Assembly: GCA_002633005.1 (NCBI GenBank)
Contig: NMRA01000366.1
Location: 60,222-124,221 of the forward strand
DNA: 64,000 bases
Reading direction: 5' to 3'
Source of the DNA: Phoronis australis
Lineage: Eukaryota; Animalia; Phoronida
Position 1 is the stretch's first letter. Each line of letters begins with the position of its first letter. Below the pieces are notes generated by a model. It did not search any database and was not told the DNA's origin. It saw only the letters and a program-made list of their open reading frames with translations. Position numbers and translations under genes: made by a program. Below, one piece after another: positions 17,201-29,200 of this stretch.

Positions 17201-20200
17201 CGCAAGCTCCGTCTCCTGTGAAATGTCAACAAACAAACAAAAAGTTTTACCCGGCAACGTGTTATGTATCAGATAAAATGCGGGCTTGGAAACTAAGGTT
17301 TGTCAAGAATGCTGCGTTCTGATTGATCAGTTAAGCCGTCACTCAAAATCCTGGCGATGGATCAATTCGGGAAAATGTGTTGATCATTTGTCTCTCGATG
17401 ACGTGAAAAAAAGAATCACTACGTTTTGTTGGAGGCAGACGTTTCGGCCTGGTCCGCCAGGCCTTTGTCGATGACTGAAGTATTTCGCTGTTCGCTTGGT
17501 AAGGGGCATAACTGCACACCATGGTCCCAATTCTAAAGGGGGCACTGGGTTCTGATTTTGATGGACTCCTTGATTTTATGGGCATACCAGTTCTGTTCCT
17601 TGTCGATGATCTTGGCGGAGGCAAGAGAGACAGAATGTCCAGTGTCCAAAGTATCTTCACCTACAGCTAACGGTCTGTCGATTTTTTTGTGTTCTTTGAA
17701 TCTTCTTCCAAGTGATCTTTTGGGTTCCCCAATGTAATTAGGATCCTCACAGGTAGGCTGGTAAATGACACAAAATTGTGGTCAATTGTAAATCTGCCAC
17801 GGTGCCTTGGAGCTGGTTTGCTGCTAAGTGAGTGGTATATATTTTTAGCAGCTGTTGAGATCATGAGATTGAATATTTCGGATCAATACCTACTTATGAC
17901 AGATTATAATCATACTTAGCAAAACAATAAATTTGTGATTTGCTCAGCCTTTGCTGGTGTTCTGTCAAAATTTGTTTATTTGCCTCGATTTTTTTACTCA
18001 GGTGCCTCAACATTCAATGTAGACTGTTGCCAACTTCGCATCACCTGTGAAGGGCAGGACATACCCACCCCCACATATGGATTTTACCGTATTTGGCGTG
18101 TTGGTGTTATGCATAACATTGAGCCCTGCACAAGAAACTGTGTGACATTAGATTTGGAATGTTTGATTTTTGGCATTGTAAGCTCATTTGGATGCATGCA
18201 ACATATTTGTTAATTGCCTCTTTGCCAACAGCTCAAGAAAAATGGAAATGAAGAAGGTGTTCTTGGAATTTCACACTCTTATGCTTTATGTATGCTTAAT
18301 TTCTCTTTGCTAGCCTGTCATTTCGGCCACGCTTGGCTCAAAAGTAAGTCACCGTAGAGCCCTCGGTCCCTGTAATCCCATCCCTTAGTGCATGTAATCA
18401 AAGTTGGTCTTATAGTCTAAAAACTGCTATTTGTTTTGAGTGTTAGTGTCTTGTTTATTTTTAACCCCAACTTATTAGCAATTAGAGGTTCAGGTGGTGG
18501 TATTAGTGAGACTTATGTCTGTCTGGATAAGGGTAGTTTGAATAGAAAATTAACCTGGATGTTCGATCTAACCCCGTTATTGTGTGAAACCTTCAGTGTC
18601 AGCATCCCAGAAGTAGGTCAGTTATGTTGGGTTCTTATGGTCATTGGGTTGCATTCTTTCTTCAAGAGCAATAAATTTGTCACAAAGAAAGATTATTGTA
18701 ATCCAAGTTACATTGCAGTCTTTGATTGTTTTAAAGATACTCTGTCCGCTTTTTCAGATGAAATTGTGTAAAAAGAGTTTGATTACTAACCAATCTTAAG
18801 TTTAAACTGATTCCAAAATTCTGCTCGGTCAACCAAATCAAATGTTTTCGAAGTAACTGTAGTTGAATAATCCGATTTTGAACTTATTTTTTCAATTGGT
18901 GATGGTACACCATACAAATGAAGCACATTGATTTTAATGTTTGAATTACCAGTAAGTTCAGCAAACATGCGTGGCTGTAACTTGCAAAGTTTTCCTAATT
19001 TAGTTACGTCTGGACTCATTCTGTGTTTTAATCAAATAAAGGTGTGTCTTTAAAAAGAGCAACCTTGCTGTCCTTGAAAATCTCTAAACATTCTGGTTAC
19101 TTCGTAACAATAATTGTTTTGAGAGGTATTGTTATCAGATAATATTTTGTGGTTGGTCTTCCCCCTTGTTAAGCGGATTACGTGGCCACGCATTGTATGT
19201 TGTGTAGGTGATGAATTTGCTTGGTTTCAGTTCCAAGTAGATTTCTGCGTCTTAATTTTGCAGAAAATCAAATGTGAGGTCATGTAACAAAACAAACTTT
19301 TTGTGGTTTTTGACAAGTTTAACACTGCTGCTGTATTTCTCTACTCTGGTTATTGTATTTTATGGTCTTCAAAAGATTGAGACGGCTTGAAAATTATGCA
19401 TGTTCTTATGTTTCAATAATTGCACTTGATAATACTATATTTGGTATGCTAAGCGTGGGACGTTACTTGTATAATATATCGTAATCCACAAACAGGCTGT
19501 GCAAACGGAACAGCTTGTTGACCCAATTATTCAACTTGTGCAGTCTTATCAAAGCTTATGAAATTATGACTATTGTACATAACCAACGGTGCTCATTTAG
19601 TCAGCACATGTTCTAGTATCAGATGTTTTGCCACAAATCATGGACACGTGTGAAGAGTATTCAGTGCAAATTACCTGACTTGCATATGTGTTGAGTCCTG
19701 CTTAATAAATAAATGTATGTGTTGGATCTGATGTAAACGTTTAAATGAAAACATGCACATGCTTTCGGGGACCAAAAAACTTTTAACTAAGGTGACTGAA
19801 GTTTGAAGAGGTTTAACTAGGCAAGAATGAACTCCAACTCACTCCCTACAAGTACTTACAAGCGCCTTATCTTGCAACATCACAACAAAGCCTGAAACAC
19901 GCATGTGTCCCAACATAATTGTGAGAATAGTTGTGAGCCCGGTATGTGCAGTCCAGCCATAATTGTTCCCATATTAAGTACTACTCTTTAATGTGTTGTG
20001 GCTTGGTTTCATACTTGCTATGAAACTGGCAATATCAGTTTGAATTGACATCCTCCCGTTTACCGTTTCAGACTGTATGGGCGTGCAATTTGTGTCGGAA
20101 GAAGCAGCAGATTGCTGCCAAGACTGGACAATGGTATCATGGTGGTCAAGCGAAGCCGGTCGGACTGGACGTGGACGTTCTCTCTGGCAGTGAAACAGGG

Positions 20201-23200
20201 TCTAATAAGACTGACAATAGTCCGCTTAGCGAGTCAAAAATGCCAACGGACACTAACTTGCGGCGTGGCCCCGATGGGAGACCGATGTTTCAGCGAGCGG
20301 GGAGTCGAGAACTGCGGCGTCAGTACTCTACAGCGGGAGGAGAAAAATTAGGTCCTGATGACCATGTAGACAGGAGGAACTTAAATGGTGGTTCACCATC
20401 GTCAGAACGTGCTCGTTCGATGGAGAGGAGCCACCCGGGTCATGATCCGGCCCTGCGTCCGCGAGATCGTTCAATGCCCCCTGGTGGCTTCAGAAATGAA
20501 ACTGATACCAGTATGCGGCCAAGAGAAAGGTCAGTGCCACCTGGTGGACTTAGGGATGAGAGAGATGTGCCACCGGGTTATCGTGGTCGGCGACCTCCTG
20601 ACGGTCGTGGCAGACCTGATACACGTGATATGAGGGACAGAGGTCCTCCTGATAGGGTTGATATGAGGGACAGAGGTCCACCTGATAGAGGTGATATGAG
20701 GGACAGAGGTCCACTTGATAGGGGGGATGTGAGGGACAGGGGTGCTCCTGATCGTGTTGATACGAGAAACAGAGGTCCTGCTGACAGGGGTGATATGAGA
20801 GACAGGGGTCCTCCTGACAGGGCCGATATGCGAGACAGGGGTCTTGCTGACAGAAGTCCTCCTGTTAGAAGTCCTTCTGATAGAGGCCTGTCAGAAAGAC
20901 AAGGGCGACCTGATCAGAGAGATGGTCCCATGCCCCCTGATGGAAGGGGTATGAACTTGCCTCAAGAACTGAGAGGCTCGCGAGGGCGATTACCCAATGA
21001 TAGGTCAGAAAGGGGTGGAATGCTTCCAGACACAAGAAATAGTCCTCCTGGGAGGGAGAGTGTGGCAAACCGCGATATGAGGAGTGAGGGTCCAATTGGA
21101 CCTAACTCGAGGACTGGTCAGGATGGAGGGTCTCCGCAGGAGCCAAGGGGTCAGGAATTCAGGAGGGAGGCTCATGGTGATGGGCGCTCACGACTGCCGC
21201 ATTCGCCTTCCAGTGACTTAAGAGATCGTACTAATCCCAGTAACGAAAGACTGGATCCTAGAGGCGGGACTACCGGCTCTCTATCAGGATCAATTTCCGA
21301 CCTCCGACACAAGAGAGCTACCCAAGAAGAAGGGATTGACGGGCAGGGTCGGTTGGCGTCTGGACTAGGGGCTCCCGATGGTAGACCAGCAAGTGAGGCT
21401 AGAGAGGAGAAGTCTCCACCGGGTCCCCGACCAGAGCCTCGCGAACGATCTACAGAGAGGGGCAGGGAACGCCTGAGGGAGAAACCCCAGGATCATACCT
21501 CTGACAGGAGAGGGTAAGAGTGTGGTGTTGGTCACGAATTGTGGTCTGATTGATTGAAATTAATGTATCACATATGGGCAGAACTGCTTACTTCTACTGT
21601 TGTGTTAAATACATTCAGCTTTGTGTCTGAGGGATTGCGTGAAAACAACTGCACTGTGGTCTCTTTTGTTTTTTCTTGAATTAATTTTATTTGAATTAGA
21701 ATTAAGTGGTCAATATGTTATCGCTAGAGTGCAGCATGAAAGCGTTTCGATATTAGGCAAAAATCCAAGTACAAATTGGACAGAATAGACCAAAATATTG
21801 TAACAGATTTCTCACTGCACATCATAGTGCCCGACACAATGTCTGTCTTTTAAAAACGATGTTAAGTGAGCATTTTGTTATGATATTTTGTTCTATTCTG
21901 TCTGACTATTTTACCTATTAGCTTGATATTTGCCTGATATCAAAATGTCGTTTTACTCTAGCGTTGTTTTTGTTTCCTACTTCTGCTTTCTAATTTGGCC
22001 AAAAGCTAATTCATCTTAGTTTGCATATGGTATATACTGAGCAGTAAAAGTGAAATTGCGTTCTCAGATCCTTTTACGTTACTTCCAGTGATCAGGGCCG
22101 TAACAGGATGGTGGATGACGGTAAACGAGATGACCTGAGGAACAAAGAGCAAGTCAATGACATTGACCGCCGACGGGACGCATCAAGGGATCGCAGATCA
22201 GACAAGTCACCCCCCATGCAGCACAAAAAGGACAAATTGCCCACATGCAAGTCACCAGGGATCTCGCCGACCAATCACGTTGATCGGTCAATCACTGATA
22301 AGTACATTGATCAAAAGGAATCTCAGCGAATGGATGATCTGGACAATATCGACCGCCATTTGTCGGCAAAGCCTCCACCAGCTCCTAGATCTGAGCAAAT
22401 CTCTAACGATCACGTTCGACCTGATCGGGACTTAGGAAAATCTCAAAAGGGCGAGAACACGAACAGTTCTTCCAATATGCAACACTTAGATCCGAGCTCG
22501 GCGGTGACGCGCACGTCACGCAGCAGTAGACGCAGTAAAATGGAGACCATGCTGCGCAACGATTCTCTAAGCTCTGATCCGTCAGACTGCGTGCGCCCAC
22601 CGCCCCCTCGTCCCCATAAGCACAACCCTCGAAGTAAAAAGCTGCGGCAAGACTCGCTGAGCAGTTCAGAGGACGAGATACGATCAACTCCCGAGCATAC
22701 GAGTTGTGAAGATCAGGAAAGTGAAACTGTCAGTGAGAGAGGAATTGGTGAGTAACTCCAAGGTTAAGTGGTCAGCCCGTTTTGAGATTTTGTTTCCTTA
22801 AATGATGTTGGTATGCTCAATAGTGTCACAGTATATCTGTATTTGATTTGGGCGTCTAGAGTAGCAAATGCTAGTTAGAAGGAAAAATCTGATTCTGGTC
22901 AGCCAAAATTCACATTAAATTGAAGGTGTGCAAAATAGCCTGTAAAATCGTTATTAATTTGTTTGTATCCCCTCATCATCATTTACGTCTGGAATTTACA
23001 TACTGGGGTGATCGTCAGTGAGGCATTTTAATGAATCTTTGAGATTTTCAATATGCTACTCTCCCTGGCATCCATTAAAACTCCTTGTCCCTGGGGAACG
23101 AATTACAAATAACATGATGACATTTATGGATAAAACAACATATATGGCGCAGTAACTATTCTGTTGCTGATTAGCCTAAGTTACCATCGGATGTAAAGAT

Positions 23201-26200
23201 GTCTGTAACTACATATGTGTTAGTAATTGCTGGAGTCTTGTCATGCAGTCTATCGAAATTGATTTATCATTATTTGATGATTTCGTGTTTGTGAAGGTTT
23301 CCAATGTGTTCAGGCTTACAGATGGAGCTGATACAGGTTAAGCCAAATTGTGAAGACTGAAAATGGGTCGATACCGTTTTCCAAGTTGAATGCTTTGTCT
23401 GGAGTCGGTGGTGGCATTTATTTAGTATTTTTATGAGTTGATCTTATAAAGGTGTCACTGTCCGTATTGCTATTGTTTTACCCTGCTGTTGATTAGATAT
23501 GACAGACGGCAACTTTGGGTAAACAAATTGTGTGGTATTGATGGGCTGTGAGTAGTTGTTAATACCAACGCTTCACTTAAGCCATGAACTTTATTCAGAG
23601 CGTATAATCAACAAGGAAACCATGTGGGCAGATGGGCATAGCAGTCCTGGAATAGGAGCGTGGACCTACTTAAATTGTCACATGCCTGATGACATAACTC
23701 ACCAGAGCTGCTAGCAGAAACCTCCGCCTCGTTGCACAAACAGTCCCAAATAGGAACTCAACTTAGTTCCCTAAATCTTTTGCACATTTGTGTCTTTGTT
23801 TACTTACAAATAATGTTTTGCTCTATTGTTTAATCTTGATCATGAGTTCCTCTTTTACATATATGCTATTTTCTAGTAAATATTTGAAAATTGTGCACCT
23901 TATTTGTATAGTTTGTATAATATTTATAATTCAAGCTGGAGGTTACACTCAGTTAGTATCAAAGCTTCAAATAGATTGAGTGATGAAGACAAACTAGCAT
24001 TGGAAAGTTCAGTCAGTGTTTGCTTATACGTCCACAAAAGCGGTGAACAGTTCAGGAACATAGTTGAGTCGCTATTTGGGACTATTTCAATCGGGCACTG
24101 GAGCCTAAAAACACAACAGGAACTAGGCAAGTAACAGGAAATCCAGGTCTGTTTCGGGAATCATGGGCAGAATTTGACCAAATGGTTTCACTCCTCACAA
24201 CGAGGATTGTTGTTTTGTATAGATGAATCTATTCATGGTACGAAACAACGACAACTGCATGTTTTCTTGTTGATTATACGCCATTGGTTAAAAGCTTAGT
24301 GTGTGATTCCACCTCATTTGTACGATTTGGGAAGCAATGGCCAAAATTTAGGCCGCATTCCGTAAGGCAAGACATTGGCAAGACATTTGTGGTGAGAAAT
24401 GTAAACAGGAAATTTCTCCCATAGTTCAACATTACAGCCTCACTGTCCATTCACTTCAGTGGTGGCCATTTTGCTAGTCTACTCTTTTTAGACTTCAAGC
24501 TTTCTCACGAAACAGTGGCGTTTCACTCTTGTCATTTTGTGCGGTCTTGCTTGATCTCAACTATCTTGTAAGTAACTTGCTTTACGGAACGCAGCCCGGC
24601 CTGATGGCCTGTACGATGTACCCTGAACTTTGAAGAAGCCATTCTCTAGTGTGGCTTGTGATTTCAGCACAAACATACCGGGATCTCGGTGTTCCCGTTA
24701 CTGGCATCGATGCTTACGATGGAAACCTCCGAAAAGACGAGCTAATTGCTGCGAAAATTAAGCGCTTTCTTGCGGTGAGATTTCTCTGCTGACCAAGCCA
24801 CCAGCTGTGCTCTTGGTCATGTTTGCTTATTGCACTTTGGGTCCCCTTCCTTAAGGTCACGCAACCAAAAGATCTTGCCTGTAAAGAAGTATCGGTTTCT
24901 GAAATTCAGATAAATCATATTTTTGGTTGTTCTGTGCCGAGCATGGAGGTAGAGCCCTTGTTTGTTTACCTGAGCATCTTTCTTGTCCCTTCGCATGATT
25001 TGTTGTGCTATGTAAGTTGTTGGTGTTGATCCCAATTGTGGCATCTCTGCGAAGTCCAGTCGTATCCCTAGGTTTTTCTCATGATTGTTTTCCCCGTATG
25101 TGTCTGTGTTGTAAACGTCTCGAGATGACCAGATGGCCAGTACCAACAACTGACATGCATGCCCCTCCCCCAGTGTTTGTTATGAGTTCCCCTGGCTAGC
25201 ACCTTTAGGGGTCTATTTCCTTTCTAGGCGAGCTAGAAAGTTATGCGCGGCAGGGTGGTAGTACCAAACATGCCTCGCCCCTCTCCGCCGCCATCACCAG
25301 CGGCGGCGTGCGCGCCAAGAACTTTGTCCGATTCGGCCGCGGGCAGTCAACAGACGAGGACTGGGGTTGGTCTCAGATCAAGGATTCTGGGATTGACACG
25401 GGCTTGTCGGGAAGCAATCAGACCCTGAATCAAGAAGAGATGCTGAAGGTACAGTACCGACTGCCCCAGCATTGCTTTCTAGGTCTATCCTAGTGGTCTC
25501 CAGGGCATAGGGGTTGTCGCCAGTATCCATTGGGGCTGCTGTCGTTTGCTGTGCTCCCACTGTCTCTCACTCTGTTCCAATATTGTAGTGGTTATGTATT
25601 TTTGTGCGAGCTCACCGATGCGAGTTTGTAATTATGTTTTTTTAACCCTAGATGAGAAAAAGGTGGTGCTGTGGCCGTATGGCAATGCTTGATACAAAAA
25701 ACAGGCATGATATGTGAGGTCACGTCAGTACGATTTGCAACCTGCATTTTGTATTTGGCTGTAGACAACATCTGGAAACTGTTAGAAAAGGCAATTAAGT
25801 TAAAACTGGTGCAGCATTGTGACACTCCCAACACCTAATTTGAGTACCAATTTGAAAACTGTCACAAGTTTTTAGCAAGGTAGTTCAGTGTTTGTCTCCT
25901 CCAGAACAAGTTTTTTCCGTCTAGATTTTGGCCACGCCAGAGATCTGTAATTAACGGGAGGATGTACCCCAGTCGTCGGTGTAGCATTCAGTTAATTGTG
26001 GCCTTGTTTTAGTGCATAGGAGTCCGTCAAAGTGTTGTAACCAGCCTCCAATGGATACCGCGACTAAGTTATAGTCATTACCCCGTGTGATGTAGTTATC
26101 TTCTTAGTGATACCTATGTACGTTACATCAAGCTATATTTATTCCATCTACCTGCTTGCCTTCCTGCCCTTTGTTATTGTGTTGTTTTTACCCAGCTGCT

Positions 26201-29200
26201 CTCTATCCAGTATTTCCGCTGTTGTTGTTGAGCTTGACTTATTTTGCCCATAATTATTACCATGTTCCAGGACGAGGTGTACTGCGAAGATGGACTATGA
26301 CAAAACCTATTGTGATACGGCTATGCGACAGCTGTGTGCTGTCTATATTATAAATATTGAGGTCATTTATCAATTCTGTTTTATAACCTAAAAAACACTT
26401 TTTGATTCTTAATTTTCATTTTTTTTTTTTTATTTCCCTCTTTGGAACTGAGATTGGCCTGTTCATCAAAGTACATCTTTCTGTGTATAGAAAGCAAGTT
26501 GTGGTTTTCTATTACTCTGGTAGAATCTTCGCTGGTGGTGGTGGTAGTGGTAGTGGTATTGGGTCTTAGGTGCAGTTGTAGCGGTGCTTGTTATGGTGTA
26601 TGCTTGAGGCACATTTTGATTTCTGGAAATAGTTACATCATTCTGTGAATCATAAATGATATCTTTATCAATTTTCTTCATTATCTTGTGAAATGCCATT
26701 GGACATTTTTTTTTTTTACATCATACTTGTTCTCAGTCTTAAAAAGTTACAAAGATTTATAACTGTTGTCTTAATATTATCTTGTTTCAAATTGTTGTTT
26801 TTTTTTAACTTACTAAATTTGTTACAAAGTAGAGAATATTCACAATTAGGCCAACGATTCTAACTGTGAGTACATGTTGAATATTACATCTGACTTGTGT
26901 GTTTGTGTGGCCGTTGCAGCATCCTGTTACCTGGCAACAATCCGAGGATGGCTCCAAGACAATAGGTCACATGATCCTGAAAAAGGGCACGCAGGATGGT
27001 AGTGGAAAAGATTCGGGTGCTATTCTAGGTGAGAGAGAAATTGGTAAATATGAGTTGTGTTTTTTCTTCTTTCGATTCTTTTCTCCTCATTATATTAAGT
27101 TGTTAGTTACAATGTGTTGCCACTATTTTTTACAATGATTTGGCCTAAGCTGTGCTTTATACTTTACAATGATTTGGCCTAAGTTGTGCTTTATAAGTTA
27201 CAATTTATTGACATTATGCCCATATAGTTCCACCAGTATGCTTTGTTTGAATTGTGTCTCCAATTTTTTATTACACTCTGGTAAGTTGACTTCAGCAACT
27301 GCAGCTGATTTTCGACAACAGTGACATCTGATGCACTGATGTCTGACCAGTGACCACCTGAATAAGAATTGCAAGGCTGGCATGATATGACGTATTCTAA
27401 TTATTTAGTTAATTTGCGACTTCGTTTTTTCATTCACCACAGCGCAATCCGGCACTCTTATTTGTTCTGTCTATTTTTCAACCAGTTATTACAAACAGTC
27501 TGTCCCTGTGGCATGGTCTCAGTAGCGCAACTCATTGCTACCGTTCTTTAAATAGGTCTCAAAGTCATTGGCGGCAAGATGACGGAACACGGCAGGCTGG
27601 GAGCATTCATCACAAAGGTGAAGAAGGGTAGTATTGCTGACACAGTGGGGCATCTTAAAGCAGGTGAGTTGGAGCAATTGTTTGAGGTCCTTGCAGTTCT
27701 TTGTGATGGTGTGCTGGTTGTCTGCACAATACGGGTTGGGAAGTGACGATACCGGTATCGATTTGATCGTCACATTCAAGTGTGTGTAGTGTCGACTTGC
27801 AGTACATGCCGGAAATAAGTGGACAAGGCTCTGTGCCCCGACACGACTGGTCATTTCATCTCATCTTACTGATGTGGACTTTCACTTGCGCTCGTCTGTC
27901 AGAAGGAGAATTCTACTTGCGCTTGGCGGTCACGACAAGGACGACGGGGGAATTCTTTGTGACTGATTATTTTTGGTATATTCCGTACTCTGTCCCAATT
28001 TTAGTGTGACCATTCTCCATATTTTGCTACCACATTGTTACCGCCGTGAAACCTTCTGTTAGGAGGACTCTGTAATTCACAATCGTGAGTTCATCGTCCC
28101 CCATAAGACTCAAATGTAACTAAATTCATTTGTGTCGTGCATCTGAGAGCATTGCGTAGACTGGTTGATGTGGTCGATATGTATGATTGGCTTCTGTATT
28201 TGTGTGGGTCACAGAAGTGATAATAGAATGCTCTCAACTTGAAAGTGGTTGGTTAAAATATGTACACTCAATGATGATGATGAGTGACACCTGTCAATAA
28301 TTAGCTGATTGCCCGGGTTGTTTTTTTCCTGAAAAATACCGTTCATTAATTGCGCATTATTGTATTTGCACCTTCAGTATGTTTGAATATTTCTCAAATT
28401 ATTGTATGTTGCATAAATTATGAAATGATCTCTGGATCTATGTGTATGGTATGTTATAACAAAGGTCTGCAAAGCGGACTGCTTATCCAGATTATGGACA
28501 CTGTCGTTCTCCGCCGATCCATAGGTTCCGTTCTGTAACAAATCTGCTCTTGAATCATTAGGTGATGAAGTCTTAGAATGGAATGGACGATCTCTGAAAG
28601 GTGCCACATTTGAAGAGGTCTATGATATTATACTAGAATCAAAGCAAGAACCTCAAGTGGAGCTGATAGTGCAGCGAGATAACACTGTCAGGTAAGATGG
28701 GCATATGTGTTATGGGTCAACCCTGACGTGGATCCAGATGGTGTCCTGGGTCCGAACCCCTTCTCTCTGTCATGTTTTTGATTTAACTGCATTGGCGGAA
28801 GTGCAGGTAAACTATCAGACTTTCCTTTTGGTCATGACTCTGGGTCAGCACCCACAACCACAGTTACTAGTCAGAGGCGTTCCCAGTGAAAGCTCACCAT
28901 AACAATTGTTTTTTGATGTTTATGCGCCCACATTTTAATGTGGTCGCATATTGCCATCCTCTCTGTCTGATGTCCGCGGCTGTATCCCCAAAACCCATGA
29001 AGGATCTTCACGAATTGGGCCGATGTTTTCCGATGGAGGTGGCGACGAATGATGGTGGGTTTTGAATGAATCCGAATGCTTCTCAGCTCCCTAGTATTTT
29101 TTATTTTCCTCTGTGGCTTCTGAGTCCCTTGACAAGATTTTCGTATTTAGTGAGTAGGTTTATGTTAAGGAGACAATGATAATTCATCCTATTTTCAGAA

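Follow-up and report, generated by a model that had tools for sequence, protein, structure and literature searches.

At release sites RIM determines both the priming of vesicles and the abundance of calcium channels, and the control of RIM levels from synapse to synapse is unsettled. A stretch of 64,000 nucleotides from Phoronis australis (GenBank assembly GCA_002633005.1, contig NMRA01000366.1, positions 60,222 to 124,221 of the forward strand; the whole stretch is called the window, and positions are counted from its first nucleotide) raises the question of why a RIM gene carries, immediately ahead of its PDZ domain, two unrelated exons, a and b, that are used one at a time. The gene is a RIM-I ortholog: by tblastn, five RIM proteins place its zinc finger, PDZ, C2A and C2B domains in that order on the + strand, and its best identities are to annelid, nemertean and molluscan RIMs. 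It shares with RIMS1, RIMS2, unc-10 and Drosophila Rim the zinc finger, the RNDSLSSD block, the HPVTWQ-extended PDZ domain, C2A and C2B, and its PDZ fold matches PDB entries 2css, 1wfg and 1zub. From comparison of sequences we consider it quite possible that the choice is a splice switch for regulated RIM turnover, in which inclusion of exon b would supply RIM with a beta-TrCP degron gated by phosphorylation, and inclusion of exon a a predicted helix without one.

The junction comprises the following features, supported by RNA runs X1 to X4 and by six further genomic loci (L001–L006) that were compared at the DNA level.

22089–22747, + strand: upstream constitutive RIM exon (HLDPSS / RNDSLSSD / SE.G block) with a phase-1 donor; spliced reads 21513→22089 and 22747→25228.
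24668–24774, + strand: alternative exon a, 107 nt, phase 1→0; two X3 reads over the exact span, and homology.
25209–25254, + strand: cryptic phase-0 acceptors in the frame of b, with first exon bases 25209, 25233 and 25254; sequence.
25228–25448, + strand: alternative exon b, 221 nt, phase 1→0; five junction reads, and homology.
25234–25236, + strand: TAG at the third codon when a is joined to b through the main acceptor; same position in L003 and L004.
26920–27028, + strand: first PDZ exon (HPVTWQ...), phase-0 acceptor; sequence, PDB match and reads.
27556–27663, + strand: second PDZ exon; reads and tblastn.
28562–28680, + strand: third PDZ exon, matched part (3' end unmapped); reads and tblastn.

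The donor GT at 22748 is preceded by a single phase-1 G. Exon a is bordered by CAG and GTGAGA and holds 35 open codons; exon b is bordered by TAG and GTACAG and holds 73. At the main splice sites either exon alone restores the frame, and both or neither break it: the a+b junction translates as A-S-stop, and skipping both exons shifts the frame into a stop within the exon at 26920, which is the start of the RIM PDZ domain (PDB 1wfg, RIMS2, E 2e-7; RIMS1 constructs also match). No local alignment between a and b was found at E ≤ 100, and their cross-profile scores are 2.3 and −1.4 bits. A first-pass annotation, made from the letters alone, had described two unrelated phase 1→0 exons with these coordinates and lengths, an immediate stop on splicing a onto b and a frameshift on skipping both; all of this agrees with the sequence and its translation. 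The phase-0 cryptic acceptors mean that an in-frame a+b product is possible, and exclusion is a rule that the sequence does not guarantee; no read in the low-depth RNA runs was seen to use 25209, 25233 or 25254. Sequence alone makes a weak case for the pair, because a crude splice-site filter applied to the intron recovers b and misses a, and shuffled introns average 0.29 such candidates; the proof comes from RNA and conservation.

Four runs carrying the same species label were aligned, with about 18–19% of each of the three raw-read runs (X1–X3) used, and a splice joint was reported only if at least three reads supported it. The joint 22747→25228 is present in five reads of X3, and in a finer pass over that run three of three reads at the acceptor of b have the upstream exon as their loose end. 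None of the five reads at this acceptor comes from a, which is too few to gauge how exclusive the choice is or how it differs between tissues. Coverage of the 3' half of b in X1 stops at its donor. For exon a, depth in X3 is two exactly over 24668–24774 and zero on both flanks (34-base resolution), and two reads are therefore spliced at both of its ends. The first-pass annotation had named three further joints, 22747→24668, 24774→26920 and 25448→26920, none of which reached three reads in the runs examined; since the joints of exon a fall under the threshold, its splice partners are ones that we infer. Nothing in the contig run X4 matched 24500–25519. Both exons are thus spliced in this species, at low depth and exon a in one run only. 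The possibility raised at first pass, that a single exon is ever spliced and the other is unconserved, does not describe the data: both are spliced and both are conserved across species.

The same alternative is found in many RIM proteins. A protein search with the upstream exon was taken to the best 120 of 7,995 matches, and isoforms were added from clusters of up to 15 members each. Among 220 proteins of at least 300 residues with an HPVxW junction, 80 have a only, 72 b only, 59 a short mammalian segment, three both and six none; these six, which are two Lineus isoforms with an 8-residue third variant and four truncated models, include no long b-like segment. Seventeen molluscan and nemertean species supply 85 named isoform models, of which 42 have a, 41 b, two neither and none both. 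The two exons are alternatives in nine of the 17 named spiralian species, and also in Owenia and Patella caerulea. The retention of both variants in one invertebrate gene, which the first-pass annotation had singled out, therefore holds, but as the norm and not as a rarity (nine of 17 spiralians, Hyalella, and the alternatives of mammalian RIMS2). Some models depart from the simple pair. The third alternative of 8 residues lies at the same junction in Lineus P0164 and P0165, several molluscs have a small optional exon ahead of a or b, and the Bradybaena models P0034 (b) and P0218 (a) lie on different contigs, a possible partition between paralogs.

At the DNA level, L003, L004 and L006 have a followed by b, with a in phase 1→0 and the acceptor of b in phase 1, and joining a to b meets a stop at codon 3 in L003, 3 in L004 and 10 in L006. 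In L002 exon a is present and nothing matching b precedes the PDZ exon, and L005 shows a only. L001 (1071–1355) has no b, and its exon a is fused with the upstream one; this lineage has fixed the a form. The intron between a and b measures 453 nt in the window, 466 in L003, 388 in L004 and 1,079 in L006. No shared inverted repeat was found among the five longest per locus, and a three-way intron alignment shows little conservation. Introns of 388–1,079 nt are longer than steric exclusion would allow, and the search for conserved pairing elements gave none; enforcement through the reading frame and nonsense-mediated decay (NMD) is therefore the probable mechanism.

Exon b matches the long form of mammalian RIMS2 at 52% over 44 residues (E 2e-8), as first-pass comparison with vertebrate RIMS2 had supposed. 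A profile of b from 11 spiralians scores 58.0 bits on b of the window, 55.5 on Saccoglossus, 49.8 on the dolphin RIMS2 long form and 22.6 on Hyalella, and none of 500 shuffles reaches any of these scores. Homologs of b therefore stand at the same junction in both protostomes and deuterostomes: the spiralians, the amphipod Hyalella (P0253, with an a-like stretch, then b, then the PDZ domain in one model), the hemichordate Saccoglossus (P0325, whose segment begins GELESYA like that of the window) and cetacean RIMS2 (P0113). As a lone query exon b matched one protein in a word-indexed search. The corresponding search with the exon-a region returned 15 candidates and 14 matches, molluscan and annelid ones included, and was uninformative for other phyla.

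A profile of a from 24 protostomes scores 29.6 bits on a of the window and 11.8 on the Hyalella stretch (0 of 500 shuffles), and a profile of exon a with the PDZ start matched 105 representatives. An a-like segment occupies the junction in the spider Uloborus, the tick Rhipicephalus, Artemia, Heterorhabditis, the flatworm Macrostomum and all four full-length C. elegans unc-10 isoforms seen, which bears out the proposed resemblance to nematode and arthropod RIM. No homolog of a was found in a deuterostome among 20 named proteins checked, 19 of them from the 105 profile matches. The 75 cetacean and rodent RIMS2 proteins likewise have two alternatives between the same flanks, 16 with the long b-like segment, 59 with a short segment of 23 residues and none with both. 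The tail of the long form is contained in PDB 1wfg ('RIM2B'). The short form is unlike exon a of this gene: the a profile finds nothing in it, and direct comparison detects no similarity. Thus unc-10 and L001 have the a-like segment only, mammals have b or an unrelated short segment, and the present gene has a and b. Judged by these alignments, exon b dates to the protostome–deuterostome ancestor and exon a to at least the protostome ancestor, for which we infer an ordered a→b pair. The mammalian short segment is either a diverged a or a replacement. Of the possible 'ancient bilaterian splice switch' proposed at first pass, the age stands, with b in both branches; a full a/b pair in deuterostomes gains no support, as none of the named proteins checked gave an a-like segment from a deuterostome and the short form of mammals is unlike a.

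What might b contribute? Two patterns stand out in its alignment.

25383–25400, + strand: DSGIDT, a beta-TrCP phosphodegron pattern and the most conserved part of exon b; alignment, with the consensus as given in the accessible text of PMC13097077 and PMC2287288.
25326–25334, + strand: VRF triplet in b, at an RVxF-type pattern of some homologs, with no strict match here; alignment.

The rest of b varies widely in sequence, and its length ranges from about 50 to 116 residues in spiralians. According to the accessible portions of the two sources, the beta-TrCP consensus is DpSGXXpS (PMC13097077) and Bora carries a DSGxxT degron (PMC2287288). In 75 b-bearing proteins the motif reads DSGIDT in 52, DSGVDT in 17, DSGNDT in five and DSGIDS in one, a tally that is partly circular because the b class was defined by the motif, so that the counts show variation and not universality. 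The fourth position is free while D, S, G and the last S/T are kept, which fits the expectation for a degron. The known beta-TrCP phosphodegrons of IkB-alpha, claspin and Bora (DSGxxT) likewise have DSGxx[S/T] with variable x in an acidic, serine-rich segment; here the candidate motif differs in lying on an alternative exon of a presynaptic scaffold and in being lost in L003. In four gastropods b contains another D[S/T]Gxx[S/T] further upstream. The DSGxD[T/S] core of b as a candidate degron is new here and had been missed at first pass. In Macrostomum (P0245, P0350 and P0351) DSGFDT lies just upstream of the a-like segment, placing the degron pattern and the a helix together.

The proposed switch begins with what is observed: between the RNDSLSSD exon and the PDZ domain, transcripts of the gene receive either of two unrelated phase 1→0 exons, a+b through the main sites meets a stop, and order, phases and stop are kept elsewhere. 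Exclusion would be enforced mainly by the reading frame and NMD. From the motif to degradation every step is conditional. Kinases would phosphorylate both S/T residues of the motif in its acidic, serine-rich linker, and SCF(beta-TrCP/Slimb) would then bind and ubiquitinate RIM-b, lowering its level at release sites; RIM-a would escape the beta-TrCP route, and its helix might pack on the PDZ domain or bind a partner. A bolder version, to which we give distinctly less credence, would have neurons choosing between a degradable and a stable, helix-capped RIM ever since the last common bilaterian ancestor, with mammalian RIMS2 retaining the switch and its short exon replaced.

Beyond the circularity of the tally, several observations weigh against a turnover switch. 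L003 (1028–1317) has a clear exon b, with GELES and KIVRF, and no DSGxDT. The K before the motif and its inner D are also invariant, which goes beyond the needs of a degron and could reflect a different partner. Nor is the pattern uncommon: outside b, 38 of 208 long RIM proteins (many redundant) contain a DSGxx[ST]. The E3 ligase known for mammalian RIM1 is SCRAPPER/FBXL20, not beta-TrCP. Reads are very sparse, and in two of the three raw-read runs an unspliced RNA makes up most of the signal over exon a. Finally, there are four automated models in which a is joined to b: Owenia P0038, Batillaria P0039, Hyalella P0253 and Bulinus P0280 (154 residues). The first three have Val after a, as expected from read-through of its GT donor, and in P0280 a is joined two residues into b, where the window has the cryptic GAG acceptor (25233). 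Given these models and the in-frame cryptic acceptors, 'obligately' exclusive, as the first-pass annotation had it, is true of the main splice sites and too strong beyond them.

If lifetime is not what the exons control, they could change what the PDZ domain binds, which was the earlier suggestion. They would then alter the balance between CaV2 and ELKS, the a helix packing on the PDZ domain and b leaving it bare. We consider this unlikely. What speaks for it lies in one element of exon a.

24727–24774, + strand: conserved core of a, its last 16 codons, predicted as an alpha-helix running into the N-terminal hairpin of the PDZ domain; alignment and AlphaFold model of the Owenia homolog.

This core is nearly invariant across protostomes and adjoins the PDZ domain with no spacer. 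The Owenia a+PDZ model, folded from a 60-sequence alignment (a 5-sequence fold with a predicted local distance difference test score (pLDDT) of 42.5 was discarded), has a mean pLDDT of 81.8 and a helix at residues 17–34 (pLDDT 77 over residues 21–30 and 85 over 31–40), and its variable first 15 residues are below 50. There is also a precedent, since a five-residue splice insert inside the Aplysia RIM PDZ domain abolishes CaV2 binding, according to the accessible text of PMC10657410. The same text, however, describes an Aplysia construct that starts at HPVTWQ and binds CaV2 with neither exon. The solved PDZ structures 2css and 1zub superpose on the model only from residue 33–35 (Z 17.0 and 15.3; root mean square deviation 2.4 and 2.2), and both exons therefore lie outside the solved fold; neither a nor b as a lone query matched a PDB chain. 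The hydrophobic moment of the helix is no higher than that of shuffles (p 0.33), contacts between helix and PDZ domain are unreadable in the model, and tuning of the PDZ domain would leave unexplained why DSGxDT alone is retained in b. With the exons ending before the solved fold and the HPVTWQ construct binding CaV2, the earlier suggestion finds no support. Rather unlikely as well, though it would account for the invariant K and second D, is that b is a phospho-regulated docking cassette for another partner, changing the partners of RIM and not its lifetime; this could be a kinase or adaptor reading KDSGxDT, or PP1. The RVxF-type pattern is a PP1 docking site, and a match to it precedes the motif in b of Owenia, Saccoglossus, Hyalella, P0001, L003 and L004, with L003 retaining it despite the loss of DSGxDT. 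A strict RVxF is missing from the window, from 10 of the 11 spiralian b segments tested and from the mammalian long form (dolphin). Both of these readings are compatible with a turnover switch.

Chiefly non-productive processing of the region (intron retention, intronic polyadenylation or a stable excised intron), with the protein difference between a and b of minor importance, is an improbable account, although one feature of the RNA invites it.

About 22800–25200, + strand, ends approximate: sense RNA over the intron upstream of exon b; runs X1 and X2, absent in X3.

In X1 and X2 sense coverage is continuous and stands at 6–12x over 22870–24950, against 1–3x on the upstream exons and near 0 on other introns; X2 has no reads on exon b or the first PDZ exon, and a transcript that reads past the 22748 donor meets a stop after a single codon. 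The extent of this RNA fits the intron removed in the b form, and it could be a stable excised intron, a product of intronic polyadenylation or a separate transcript. Drosophila rim variants that share only the Rab3-binding domain, among 14 fly variants in the accessible text of PMC10494931, are in keeping with such processing. Against it, both exons have open frames with protein-level conservation across phyla, no AATAAA occurs within the intron, the end of the 22800–25200 RNA included, and X3 shows clean splicing of both exons. Such processing can coexist with the other readings, a turnover switch included.

Mutually exclusive exons of the duplicated type are familiar from Dscam, tropomyosin and CaV channels. 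The present pair resembles them in the choice of one of two, in matching phases and in conserved order; it differs in that a and b are non-homologous and of different length, with no conserved docking/selector pairing or very short intron found, and exclusion here appears to be frame-enforced. The Aplysia insert is also a case of molluscan RIM splicing beside the CaV2-binding site, but its five residues lie inside the PDZ domain, one exon downstream, and in the accessible text of PMC10657410 the constructs omit the a/b segment. Within the accessible text of each source, PMC7273530 describes alpha, beta and gamma promoters of RIM genes, the RIM review PMC10169678 covers promoters and has no such splice site, the RIM phylogeny PMC7456537 is silent on the junction, the supplements of that paper and of PMC9282427 on the RIM family contain no RIM junction sequence, and PMC8797185 gave no whole-word match. 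No description of the exon pair or of a beta-TrCP degron in RIM was found in the literature searched, which covered titles and abstract openings and left subscription papers mostly outside its scope. The isoforms are already known (RefSeq, PDB 1wfg); the cross-phylum homology and the degron reading were not found in that literature. Because the isoforms already stand in databases, novelty is limited, and the mammalian pair may be recorded in the papers on RIM gene structure by Wang and Sudhof (2003) and by Johnson et al. (2003). That molluscs, annelids and arthropods all retain this exon choice, and hemichordates and mammals one arm of it, points to a functional site in the linker, a stretch usually left out of PDZ constructs. 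The choice offers a simple test site, one motif with two S/T residues, in the mammalian RIMS2 long form and in fly or mollusc RIM, and it clearly exemplifies an ancient pair of alternative exons with no sign of exon duplication.

Several minor features of the locus were recorded. Because the frame of a has no ATG, a beta-type isoform that would start within exon a from an internal promoter was ruled out. Rfam gave no match in 22700–26960. Upstream of exon a, a 21-nt inverted repeat (23600–23620 and 24261–24281; 95% complementary, 640 nt apart) was not seen in the other loci compared. Short dispersed repeats at 23738–23792, 24033–24087 and 24436–24477 draw reads from other loci (loose ends, both strands), and the first two form a 55-nt inverted pair that is 75% complementary. 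Further upstream, an open reading frame fragment on the minus strand at 17533–17781 resembles the GIY-YIG-type end of a retroelement, and the large RIM exon at 20024–21513 encodes about ten tandem DRGPPDRxDMR-like units (20531–20900) and skews the base composition.

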